A DNA stretch of 64,000 nt from an uncultured Chloroflexia bacterium. Its GTDB lineage: Bacteria > Chloroflexota > Chloroflexia > Thermomicrobiales > UBA6265. Made by a program: the position numbers and the translations under genes. Under the pieces are notes generated by a model. It was not told the DNA's origin. It made no database searches and was given only the letters and a program-made list of their open reading frames with translations. Shown here in pieces: positions 20,122 through 21,243 of this stretch; positions within the stretch are counted from its first letter, which is position 1; each line of letters starts with the position of its first letter. The stretch lies in assembly GCA_963762985.1 (NCBI GenBank), contig CAVXMK010000024.1, forward strand, positions 4,791 to 68,790, in the 5' to 3' direction.

Positions 20122-21243
20122 TCAGGCGCACCGGTTCGTGTCGCGGCACACCCCACGGCAACAGTCGCCGTCTTCCGTGCATGGGGCCATGGGGAGCGCG
20201 CAGTCGCAGGGCTCCTGCTCGCAGGCGCACTTGTTGGTCGTGTCGTCGCAGTACTGGCTGCAACACTCGACATCCTCCGTGCATTCGTGCTCGACGGGGA
20301 AACAGAGGCACGCTTCGGTCTCGACGTCGCACTTGCCGCGGCAGCACTCCAGGTCGGTCCGGCAGGAGGTTCCAGGGGGCGTGCAGAGGCAGCGGTACTG
20401 CGCCTCGCCCGTCACCGCGTCGTACCCCGCGTGCAGGCAATCGCCGCTGCAGCACTGCGACCAGTCGTCGCACAACTCCCAACTGCGCTTGCAGCAGAAC
20501 CGCGGCCAATAGGAATTGTCGGGGGCGGGGGCGCAGACGTAGCTCGAAAAGCCCGGACTCTCCGCAAACACGTCCCGGCAGTACTGATTCGTGCAGCAGT
20601 TGGAGCACGGCTCACCCGGGGCGCAGGGCGCGTCCTTCTCGGGCGCCCACCCCCCGTACCAGGTGTTGGCGTTGCAGCGGCAAATCTTGGGGCCGCTGTT
20701 CCCGCTCGCATACAAGCAAACATTTCCGCCGGGGTTCCGCTCGTCCCGGCATTGTTCGTGCGTGGAGCAGGCACAGGTTCCCACACCGGATCGCAGGTCC
20801 GCCAGGCACGCGCGGCTGGCCGGGCATTCCGGTTGGCAGACCGGCTGGCAGGCGCCGTCCATACACTGCTCATTGTCGTTGCAGGCGAAGGCGCTGCCGC
20901 AGCCGCCGCAGTGATTATCGTCGGCGTCGGTGTTGCGGCAGACGCCTTTGCCGCCCTCGAGGCAGCAGGCCCGGTTGTCCGAACAGCCCGGCAGATCGTT
21001 CGTGCAGCAGTCGGCGTTGGGGATGCACTCGTCGCCGCAGCGCTTGAAGCCGTCGTTGCAGCCGCATTGCAGGCAAGCCTGAGGCTTCTTTTTCTTCTTC
21101 TTCTTTTTCTTCGCGTCTGCCGGCGGCGAGAGGGCGCCTGCCACCGCGGTCAGCCCGAGGCCGGCGGCAACACCAAACAGGCCGCGCCGCACCGCGGCTC
21201 TGCCCAACAAACGCGTCCAGGTGTCGAACGCCTCTGCTTCCAC
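20122..21243 (-). CDS. Member A: Tat-leader, Lys9 tract, cysteine-rich (knottin-like C-x5-CC-x3-C) multi-module protein
   Basis: GTG at 21243 follows GGAGG; the longest ORF starts at 21258. Leader is VEAEAFDTWTRLLGRAAVRRGLFGVAAGLGLTAVAGALSPPADA, then KKKKKKKKK. More than 60 Cys follow, for example CRTDLECCRGKCDVETEACLC, CTEDVECCSQYCDDTTNKCAC and CTEDGDCCRGVCRDTNRCA. Confidence 0.75.
   Translation of the reverse strand: MEAEAFDTWTRLLGRAAVRRGLFGVAAGLGLTAVAGALSPPADAKKKKKKKKKPQACLQCGCNDGFKRCGDECIPNADCCTNDLPGCSDNRACCLEGGKGVCRNTDADDNHCGGCGSAFACNDNEQCMDGACQPVCQPECPASRACLADLRSGVGTCACSTHEQCRDERNPGGNVCLYASGNSGPKICRCNANTWYGGWAPEKDAPCAPGEPCSNCCTNQYCRDVFAESPGFSSYVCAPAPDNSYWPRFCCKRSWELCDDWSQCCSGDCLHAGYDAVTGEAQYRCLCTPPGTSCRTDLECCRGKCDVETEACLCFPVEHECTEDVECCSQYCDDTTNKCACEQEPCDCALPMAPCTEDGDCCRGVCRDTNRCA

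Follow-up and report, generated by a model that had tools for sequence, protein, structure and literature searches.

A predicted Tat-type leader with a nine-lysine tail precedes a cysteine-rich protein with knottin-like modules in an uncultured Thermomicrobiales bacterium

To our knowledge, cystine-knot mini-domains are experimentally established only from animals, plants, fungi and viruses. Inhibitor cystine knot (ICK) mini-proteins such as U3-scytotoxin-Sth1a (PDB 5FZV), omega-atracotoxin-Hv1a (1AXH/1HVW), U2-cyrtautoxin-As1a/Aps III (2M36) and the omega-conotoxins are free peptides of 30–40 residues with the framework C-x6-C-x5-CC-x3-C-xn-C. Secreted cysteine-rich repeat proteins (SCREPs) and double-knot toxins (DkTx; the remipede double-ICK, PDB 7RZ3) carry tandem disulfide-rich domains behind a signal peptide. 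Predicted bacterial knottins are listed, without experimental structure, in the KNOTTIN database (PMC5753296), and the domains of most prokaryotic SCREPs are unrecognised according to ScrepYard (PMC9885460). Here we describe a cysteine-rich gene in a 64,000-nucleotide stretch of contig CAVXMK010000024.1 (hereafter, the window) from an uncultured soil Thermomicrobiales (Chloroflexota) bacterium. The gene lies at 20122–21243 on the minus strand, and its 373-residue product, the target protein, consists of a leader, nine consecutive lysines (K9) and a cysteine-rich payload ending in four knottin-like modules. It is built of known kinds of parts, namely knottin-like and STIG1-like modules and a signal of the twin-arginine translocation (Tat) type, and it belongs to a large undescribed export class. 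As a whole, the sequence data appear best explained, with a probability of about one half, by Tat export, oxidation outside the membrane and a cationic tail that keeps the protein at the envelope.

The target protein resembles the ICK mini-proteins in its cysteine framework, in the non-cysteine consensus C.P.G.PC.....CCSG.C, in profile similarity and in predicted fold, but it is bacterial and acidic, and its four modules stand head to tail at the end of a 320-residue cysteine-rich protein. This likeness may reflect common descent or convergence. Like the SCREPs and double-knot toxins it has tandem disulfide-rich domains behind a signal peptide, whereas it combines four knots with three other cysteine-rich regions, and its leader is of the Tat rather than the general secretory (Sec) type and is followed by an N-terminal poly-lysine tail. 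Tat signals with a basic, Sec-avoiding c-region share with it the S/T-RR-x-hydrophobic motif, the weakly hydrophobic core, the AxA site and positive charge at the signal end. Unlike them, the class described here has 9–13 K/R residues instead of one to three, places them after the predicted cleavage site, adds a motif before the twin arginines (pre-RR motif, FDxLxRxL) and carries a disulfide-rich, cofactor-free payload, and hidden Markov models (HMMs) of Tat signals do not recognise it. The target has a single copy of the hairpin C..D..HCG.CG..C.....C..G.C of plant STIG1/GRI proteins (PF04885), and its distant relatives have two to four copies; the target nevertheless falls below every threshold for this family, and its remaining architecture is unrelated. 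Our literature search found no paper on Tat leaders with polylysine tails or on cysteine-rich secreted proteins of Thermomicrobiales.

The N-terminus of the target reads M-EAEA-FDTWTRLL-GRAAV-RR-GLFGVAAGLGLTAVAGALSPP-ADA, with V-RR-G-L-F at the twin-arginine motif, a weakly hydrophobic core and an AxA-type cleavage pattern (A-D-A) before the lysines. Leader statistics were compiled from 155 sequences obtained in homologue and representative searches, 140 of which had RR followed by a polybasic tract. Among these 140 representatives, the median distance from RR to the tract was 24 residues (22–26), and the tract was about 10 residues long and 78% Lys. The residue before RR was S/T in 75%, RR+2 was L/V/F/I in 68%, and A, L and G made up 57% of the core between RR and the tract. 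Ala occupied position −1 to the tract in 76%, and A/T/V/S occupied −3 in 79%. The extra pre-RR motif was conserved in 123 of the 155 sequences. These statistics support a Tat-type signal with a canonical signal peptidase I site just before the basic tract, and the genome encodes TatC (C27:12370–12993, 184 bits). Because the AxA site immediately precedes the lysines, the tract would form the mature N-terminus after cleavage. The initial annotation had proposed a Tat leader with the lysines behind its cleavage site; the family-wide statistics and TatC support this, whereas the Tat models of Pfam and NCBIfam remained silent. On balance, Tat export of this cysteine-rich protein seems somewhat more probable than not.

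Nine lysine codons (seven AAG and two AAA) follow directly on SPPADA, exactly where the initial annotation had placed them. Lys accounts for only 2.2% of the 320 residues that follow, so the run is not a composition effect. All five full-length orthologues (57–80% identity) keep 8–10 K/R at this position. Nonsynonymous divergence (pN) in the tract is 0–0.06, with saturated synonymous sites and a differing choice of AAA and AAG, and the constraint therefore acts on the amino-acid tract rather than on a DNA repeat or a slippery site. A programmed −1 frameshift on the A-rich tract (AAA-AAG) was considered and rejected, since the positions of the AAA codons vary between orthologues and the amino-acid tract is conserved. 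In the same comparison the leader evolves fast, with a ratio of nonsynonymous to synonymous divergence (dN/dS) of 0.4–0.9. Signal peptides generally evolve fast.

PhoD, a reference Tat substrate, is absent from the genome, and four multicopper oxidases of the same genome were taken instead. They have clear RR leaders without the FD motif and without a basic tail, which shows that Tat substrates of this organism do not bear the tail as a rule. The tail goes with a single class of payloads, which is cofactor-free, Cys-rich and mostly acidic. Payloads of the leader-tail class have a median of 16.7% Cys, 79% are net acidic, and the Cys count is even in 83% of 137 members.

The four C-terminal modules fit the pattern C-x6-C-x5-CC-x3-C-x(5-15)-C exactly and fall within the ICK spacing consensus CI-x(3-7)-CII-x(3-8)-CIII-x(0-5)-CIV-x(1-4)-CV-x(4-13+)-CVI; a fifth, looser fit to the ICK spacing lies inside the core, at mature residues 154–184. 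In the shuffled mature sequence the strict pattern occurred 0.044 times on average, and none of 20000 shuffles reached the observed four. A profile of 26 modules from the target and its relatives was searched against all 177635 distinct PDB sequences and gave 20 matches at E ≤ 1, of which 19 were knottins. The best were spider toxins (5FZV, E 4.2e-4; 2M36, 9.4e-4; 1HVW, 2.5e-3; also 1AXH), and the further matches included the plant knottins pB1, trypsin inhibitor 3 and Ep-AMP1, conotoxins and maurocalcin. The likeness in the profile extends to non-cysteine positions. A whole-protein profile gave only sub-threshold toxin matches against the PDB, and sub-threshold Pfam matches to Toxin_29, Toxin_18 and Omega-toxin were seen among the family members.

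AlphaFold2 models were built with a 13-sequence alignment. They are beta-rich, and the mean predicted local distance difference test score (pLDDT) is 76.5 over the mature protein and 81.0 over its last 126 residues. In a Foldseek search with the C-terminal model, a kind of check that the initial annotation had proposed for individual modules, the top matches were ICK peptides, namely 5FZV (template-modelling score, TM, 0.77; root-mean-square deviation, rmsd, 1.4 Å; probability 0.98), 1AXH, 1HVW, 2M36, nemertide 6ENA and conotoxin 6CEG. Across the ICK matches the target-normalised TM was 0.67–0.82, the rmsd 1.1–3.4 Å and the probability up to 0.98, yet every E-value was at least 0.06 because the modules are tiny, and the Cys pattern may bias the predictor. 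With the whole model, the top rows were EGF-array proteins at a TM of about 0.1, and these were dismissed as meaningless. The exact spacing, the PDB profile matches and the model superposition agree with the earlier description of a knottin-like multi-module protein. In silico, the knottin-like character of the C-terminal modules is thereby supported. A knottin has a triple-stranded sheet or hairpin around the knot and is defined by disulfides paired I-IV, II-V and III-VI, the third of which threads the ring; for the target modules this connectivity is a prediction.

The payload behind the tract is hydrophilic and acidic, with a grand average of hydropathy (GRAVY) of −0.50, a pI of 4.35, and 49 D+E against 24 K+R. 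The initial annotation had described a protein of more than 60 cysteines, with repeated units in the roughly 320 residues after the tract. The length is right, and the three units that it quoted (CRTDLECCRGKCDVETEACLC, CTEDVECCSQYCDDTTNKCAC and CTEDGDCCRGVCRDTNRCA) are all located in the protein, which is indeed Cys-rich; the number was too high, as the protein contains 58 Cys (15%), along with 19 aromatic residues. The order of the regions is given in Table 1. The four modules occupy the last 123 residues, about the final third of the protein; modules 1–3 are linked by single residues, and an eight-residue, Cys-containing linker precedes module 4. In the core, Cys, G, E, S and P residues are invariant in relatives of 35–42% identity and the pLDDT reaches 80–87; the core had no match in curated libraries or the PDB. 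The Pfam Stig1 model (PF04885) matches seven of 13 family members (best E 1.2e-12) and does not match the target itself, whose Stig1-like module is recognised by alignment only. Pfam and NCBIfam returned nothing meaningful for the target or for its 562-residue neighbour.

The initial annotation had let its reading depend on a conserved cysteine spacing, and such conservation is found. Across orthologues of 57–80% identity, 48 of the 58 Cys are invariant; the other ten are N-terminal, where modules are swapped between orthologues, and the spacing is kept in relatives of 35–42% identity. Full disulfide pairing predicts even Cys counts, as found in the mature parts of six of six orthologues (58, 58, 72, 72, 58 and 58). 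The target is unlike metallothionein-type proteins, which are characterised by about 30% Cys, a lack of aromatic residues, a cytoplasmic location and thiolate clusters: 15% of its residues are Cys and 19 are aromatic, its leader is of an export type, and the Cys count is even in all orthologues.

Table 1 Features of the cysteine-rich gene and its upstream neighbour, in window coordinates
Feature	Position	Strand	Basis or remark
STAND NTPase/TPR/LuxR (GerE) regulator, 822 residues, directly upstream	21602..24070	-	orthologue beside the target orthologue in 4 of 4 loci with context
Shine–Dalgarno GGAGG	21252..21256	-	8 nt upstream of GTG 21243; read from sequence
Leader, residues 1–44: M-EAEA-FDTWTRLL (pre-RR motif), V-RR-GLF, A/G/L-rich core, SPP-ADA (AxA-type site)	21112..21243	-	sequence and family statistics
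K9 tract, residues 45–53, AAG AAA AAG AAG AAG AAG AAA AAG AAG	21085..21111	-	predicted mature N-terminus
Variable Cys-rich stretch at the N-terminal side, with 11 Cys; exchanged or lengthened in some orthologues	20941..21084	-	alignments; pLDDT 43–63, lowest-confidence part of the model
Single Stig1-like hairpin module CRNTDADDNHCGGCGSAFACNDNEQCMDGAC	20848..20940	-	alignment to the C..D..HCG.CG..C.....C..G.C modules that distant relatives carry in repeats
Family-defining Cys-rich core, C.P.C..GR.C..G.C.C....C....NP.G..C ... C..GE.CS.CC....C ... SYWPRFC	20494..20847	-	conserved to 35–42% identity
ICK-like module 1 CKRSWELCDDWSQCCSGDCLHAGYDAVTGEAQYRC, long last loop	20389..20493	-	regular-expression match; module HMM domain E 7e-7
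ICK-like module 2 CTPPGTSCRTDLECCRGKCDVETEAC	20308..20385	-	module HMM domain E 1.8e-7; PDB profile matches
ICK-like module 3 CFPVEHECTEDVECCSQYCDDTTNKC, one residue from module 2	20227..20304	-	module HMM domain E 2.5e-8
ICK-like module 4 CALPMAPCTEDGDCCRGVCRDTNRC, C-terminal	20128..20202	-	module HMM domain E 8.4e-7

The open reading frame (ORF) matches the coordinates given in the initial annotation. The minus-strand open frame spans 20122–21258 (378 codons), and its longest version starts at GTG 21258; GTG 21243, and not GTG 21258, is the likely start. The orthologues begin at the residue equivalent to GTG 21243, and four homologous loci share a single upstream element, a GGAGG or AAGGAG at the corresponding distance. 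Apart from this Shine–Dalgarno site, no conserved operator was found upstream of the gene among the four loci. The stop codon is TGA (20122–20124). The G + C content at third codon positions (GC3) is 85%, against 57–59% at positions 1 and 2. In DNA comparisons of the target with three orthologous genes, Nei–Gojobori dN/dS was 0.21–0.33; at non-Cys positions it rose to 0.4–0.66 against the most distant orthologue, and it exceeded 1 in no region of the gene. The initial annotation had named evidence against translation of the ORF as a refutation. The Shine–Dalgarno site with its GTG start, the GC3 of 85%, the dN/dS of 0.21–0.33 and the five full-length orthologues within a wider family argue that the gene is translated and that purifying selection acts on it. 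Large ORFs overlapping it on the plus strand are the usual artefacts of high G + C content. A scan for promoters and terminators around the gene was uninformative; a plus-strand “terminator” at 21075–21087 is merely the complement of the lysine tract.

The machinery that the proposed export would use was surveyed in the host genome and in 15 congeners. Besides TatC, the host genome holds four DsbA-like genes; VKOR is present in ten of the 15 congeners and DsbB in none. We propose that the lineage-specific leader (FDxWTRxL...RR) would target the precursor to the Tat translocase and that signal peptidase I would cut after ADA, as the −1/−3 statistics suggest, leaving the nine lysines at the mature N-terminus. 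The hydrophilic, cofactor-free chain would be oxidised outside the membrane, with about 29 disulfides, by a DsbA-like/VKOR system; the even Cys counts of all orthologues are in keeping with this, and VKOR occurs in most congeners. The polycationic tail would keep the acidic, protease-resistant knot array on the anionic envelope and may also render the precursor unusable by Sec. We put forward the tether role of the tail only tentatively. The array could, speculatively, serve as a multivalent binding or inhibitor scaffold. The conserved linkage suggests that the adjacent STAND/LuxR regulator probably governs its expression.

Two side observations concern the oxidation machinery. Two congeners, G001 and G005, have almost no leader-tail proteins (one and zero matches) and are also among the five without a VKOR match; the Cys-rich secretome may co-vary with the oxidation pathway, or these assemblies may be incomplete. 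Outside the window, a DsbA-like thioredoxin-fold gene at C15:270700–271092 (+) (PF13462, E 1e-20) has an in-frame TGA at the first Cys of its paralogue's CxxC (WGDYT*PGCKNF against YGDFECPHCGSM), which makes it a candidate selenocysteine (UxxC) thiol-disulfide oxidoreductase.

Several points weigh against the proposal of Tat export with outside oxidation and envelope retention. The Tat system of model organisms rejects reduced, unfolded disulfide proteins. In the host assembly (75% complete), neither VKOR nor DsbB was found. The target has V rather than S/T preceding RR, and it remained unmatched at E ≤ 1 by the Tat-signal models PF10518 (TAT_signal) and TIGR01409, as did 13 family members at E ≤ 0.1. 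The Foldseek E-values never fell below 0.06, and AlphaFold may just reproduce knottin folds from the Cys pattern. Tail length and payload charge were uncorrelated (r = −0.04), so simple matching of charges between tail and payload is not favoured. As to the state of the exported chain, PhoA in Escherichia coli needs preformed disulfides for Tat export, and small unstructured hydrophilic proteins can pass Tat (PMC9436932 and references therein). Unstructured substrates with demonstrated passage are far smaller than the 320-residue chain; a hydrophilic payload without hydrophobic cores might be the type of chain that escapes Tat proofreading. A much bolder form of the proposal holds that a genus-level Thermomicrobiales clade has a dedicated cassette (FDxLxRxL-RR leader plus a polycationic tail of 9–13 residues) that sends hundreds of reduced, unfolded, cofactor-free and disulfide-rich modular proteins of the knottin and STIG1 types through Tat to be oxidised and held at the envelope outside. 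This would be a bacterial venom-like repertoire in which the target would be the largest knot array, with a conserved STAND/LuxR regulator, and it would break naturally with the rule of folded-only transport by Tat. We regard this bolder form as doubtful.

The main rival for the tail is a role in pathway commitment or pausing. K9 would then be a pathway or kinetic device instead of a tether: either an extreme Sec-avoidance block that forces a Sec-competent unfolded chain onto Tat, or a nascent-chain pause for a dedicated chaperone that binds FDxLxRxL. Positive charge in the c-region or early mature region is the classical means of Sec avoidance (Bogsch et al. 1997, as cited in PMC13673990). 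Such a device would be in keeping with a tail found only on cofactor-free payloads and missing from the folded multicopper oxidases, with the conservation of the pre-RR motif (123 of 155 representatives) and with a tail length that is uncorrelated with payload charge. However, one to three basic residues suffice in the systems studied, so that a run of 9–13, conserved as amino acids, suggests an added role in the mature protein, and the AxA site precedes the tract, which would leave it on that protein. A pathway device is also compatible with tethering, and as an alternative to it we consider the device possible, though rather improbable. A different reading makes the protein a released toxin, antimicrobial or inhibitor precursor, with the tract as a protease-sensitive pro-peptide junction or as a polycationic tail that targets anionic competitor or host surfaces. 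Profile and predicted fold do place the modules near ICK toxins, protease inhibitors and antimicrobial knottins of animals and plants; the class is strongly expanded with reshuffled modules, the gene adjoins a signal-sensing STAND regulator, and a dN/dS of 0.2–0.3 overall, reaching 0.4–0.66 at non-Cys positions against the most distant orthologue, is fairly relaxed for a bacterial gene. Nowhere does the ratio exceed 1, however, and linkers of one to eight residues leave no way for single modules to come free. Most membrane-active antimicrobials lack the strong acidity of this payload, and no immunity, processing or delivery gene is conserved nearby. We therefore judge release as a toxin or inhibitor to be unlikely.

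Two further readings question the export route itself. The leader might be a Sec-type signal with a chance RR, or an uncleaved signal-anchor whose lysines rest on lipid head groups, so that the protein stays bound to the membrane. The silence of the Tat-signal HMMs and the commonness of RR in high-GC proteomes would fit this, and VKOR/DsbA-like oxidation would suit ordinary Sec export of a disulfide protein. Nine lysines right behind a hydrophobic core are, in contrast, strongly incompatible with Sec in all tested systems (PMC13673990). The S/T-RR-x-hydrophobic motif, the weak A/L/G core and the 22–26-residue spacing of the class are Tat-like, and Ala at −1 in 76% argues for cleavage, which together make a leader of another type very unlikely. 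Lastly, CC and CxC motifs and 15% Cys speak for a cytoplasmic or metal-binding (metallothionein-like) protein, and positive charge is higher behind the hydrophobic stretch than ahead of it, so that the C-terminal part should, by the positive-inside rule taken formally, stay in the cell; alternatively, the ORF might be no gene at all. The even Cys counts in all orthologues, the conserved framework of aromatic, Pro and Gly residues with confident beta-rich models, and the similarity to knottin profiles stand against a metal-binding role, as do purifying selection, the Shine–Dalgarno site and the GC3 against a spurious ORF, and the probability of either is close to negligible.

If Tat export with oxidation outside the membrane and envelope retention is right, cystine knots would be abundant parts of bacterial surface or secreted proteins and a new, easily mined source of ultra-stable scaffolds. 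Natural Tat-type precursors with disulfide-rich, cofactor-free payloads would also test how strict Tat folding proofreading is beyond E. coli. As a simple tag, the poly-lysine tail at the predicted mature N-terminus could be transferred to other proteins to retain them at the envelope or to select their pathway. For annotation, the leader-plus-tail signature groups hundreds of “hypothetical proteins” into one export class.

The size of this class was estimated from the host genome and from metagenomic proteins. A strict scan of the 6.7-Mb assembly found 92 basic tracts rich in K, and in about 70 cases the tract follows an RR leader and precedes Cys-rich sequence. A loose regular-expression census of the genome was contaminated by spurious Arg-rich frames, and the stricter list and called metagenomic proteins were relied on. 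An exhaustive search of metagenomic proteins with the family profile gave 728 clusters (50% identity level) at E ≤ 1e-3, mostly via the first 100–190 positions. The initial annotation had called such disulfide-dense modules on a Tat substrate unusual in bacteria. Measured against textbook Tat biology this stands; within the lineage the design is the rule, with about 70 proteins in one genome and 728 clusters.

Judged by an ABC permease encoded in the window, the closest named genomes are metagenome-assembled genomes labelled Thermomicrobiales or Chloroflexi (78–91% identity). The orthologue profile matched 14 of 15 congeners, one of nine other genera of the family and none of 16 genomes from other families of the order. 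Matches in these 40 related genomes were confined to the leader end and to parts of the middle, and no full-length orthologue was found; four metagenome contigs do contain it. An alignment-based locus search of 185579 species genomes (the GTDB species set) returned no relatives of the target. In-frame TGA codons in congener homologues were examined as selenocysteine candidates and rejected, each being merely a terminal stop overrun by the match. The genome also encodes small proteins (about 110–230 residues) with the leader FDAWTRRRFGLAAGG, a K/R tail and one strongly basic ICK-like module (C.K.G..C..GGKRKCCG.L.C), at C14:452781–453293, C13:49520–49861, C1:141481–143728, C5:86373–88462 and others; their matches to the knot-module HMM are weak.

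Homologues and their neighbourhoods, which the initial annotation had suggested examining, comprised five full-length orthologues, and the STAND/LuxR regulator is the only gene conserved beside the Cys-rich gene at the homologous loci. The regulator orthologues are 54–74% identical and occur in three different arrangements: the same gene order at L010 (74% identity), the Cys-rich gene first and the regulator next at L008 (54%), and a divergent, fragmented arrangement at L007 (55–62%). The survival of the linkage through rearrangement suggests regulatory coupling, and on this evidence the 822-residue protein is the probable regulator of the Cys-rich gene.

The initial annotation had further suggested that the target shares a CC-x3-C core, and with it a common origin, with the 562-residue neighbour. 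This did not hold up. The neighbour has nine CC motifs, each of them CC-x4-C or longer, within a different six-Cys frame (C-x2-C-x6-CC-x4-C-x5-C), and hhalign of the two module profiles gave a probability of 1% with one aligned column. Even at E ≤ 10 the neighbour remained unmatched by the module HMM, which weakly matches several further leader-tail proteins encoded in the genome. What the two proteins have in common, as judged from their sequences, is the leader and the polybasic tail and not the Cys modules.

Some minor observations concern the surrounding island. Two paralogous STAND/TPR/LuxR regulators, at 14256–16688 (−) and 21602–24070 (−), bracket a four-gene leader-tail island and are 48% identical over 829 aligned positions. 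The third island gene (17278–17913, minus strand) has the same leader and a KKRKKRRK tail, with an in-frame TAG directly after the tail; past the TAG the sequence is Cys-rich (PPTCIPLCAGKSCGPDGCG...) and continues into a right-handed beta-helix-like domain, which breaks off early. It looks like a recent nonsense mutation, for which AAG to TAG suffices, a pseudogene or an assembly error. Another leader-like stretch lies downstream of this gene in a different frame, at about 16900–17200. Downstream of the closest orthologue, L010:2775–3266 (+) encodes a protein whose leader (MDPKNLDALVHPLAVGVSRRFALRAALAGLIAPF...) is nearly that of the 562-residue neighbour and is followed by an Arg-rich tail and an unrelated, Cys-poor payload; here the leader has been kept and the payload swapped.

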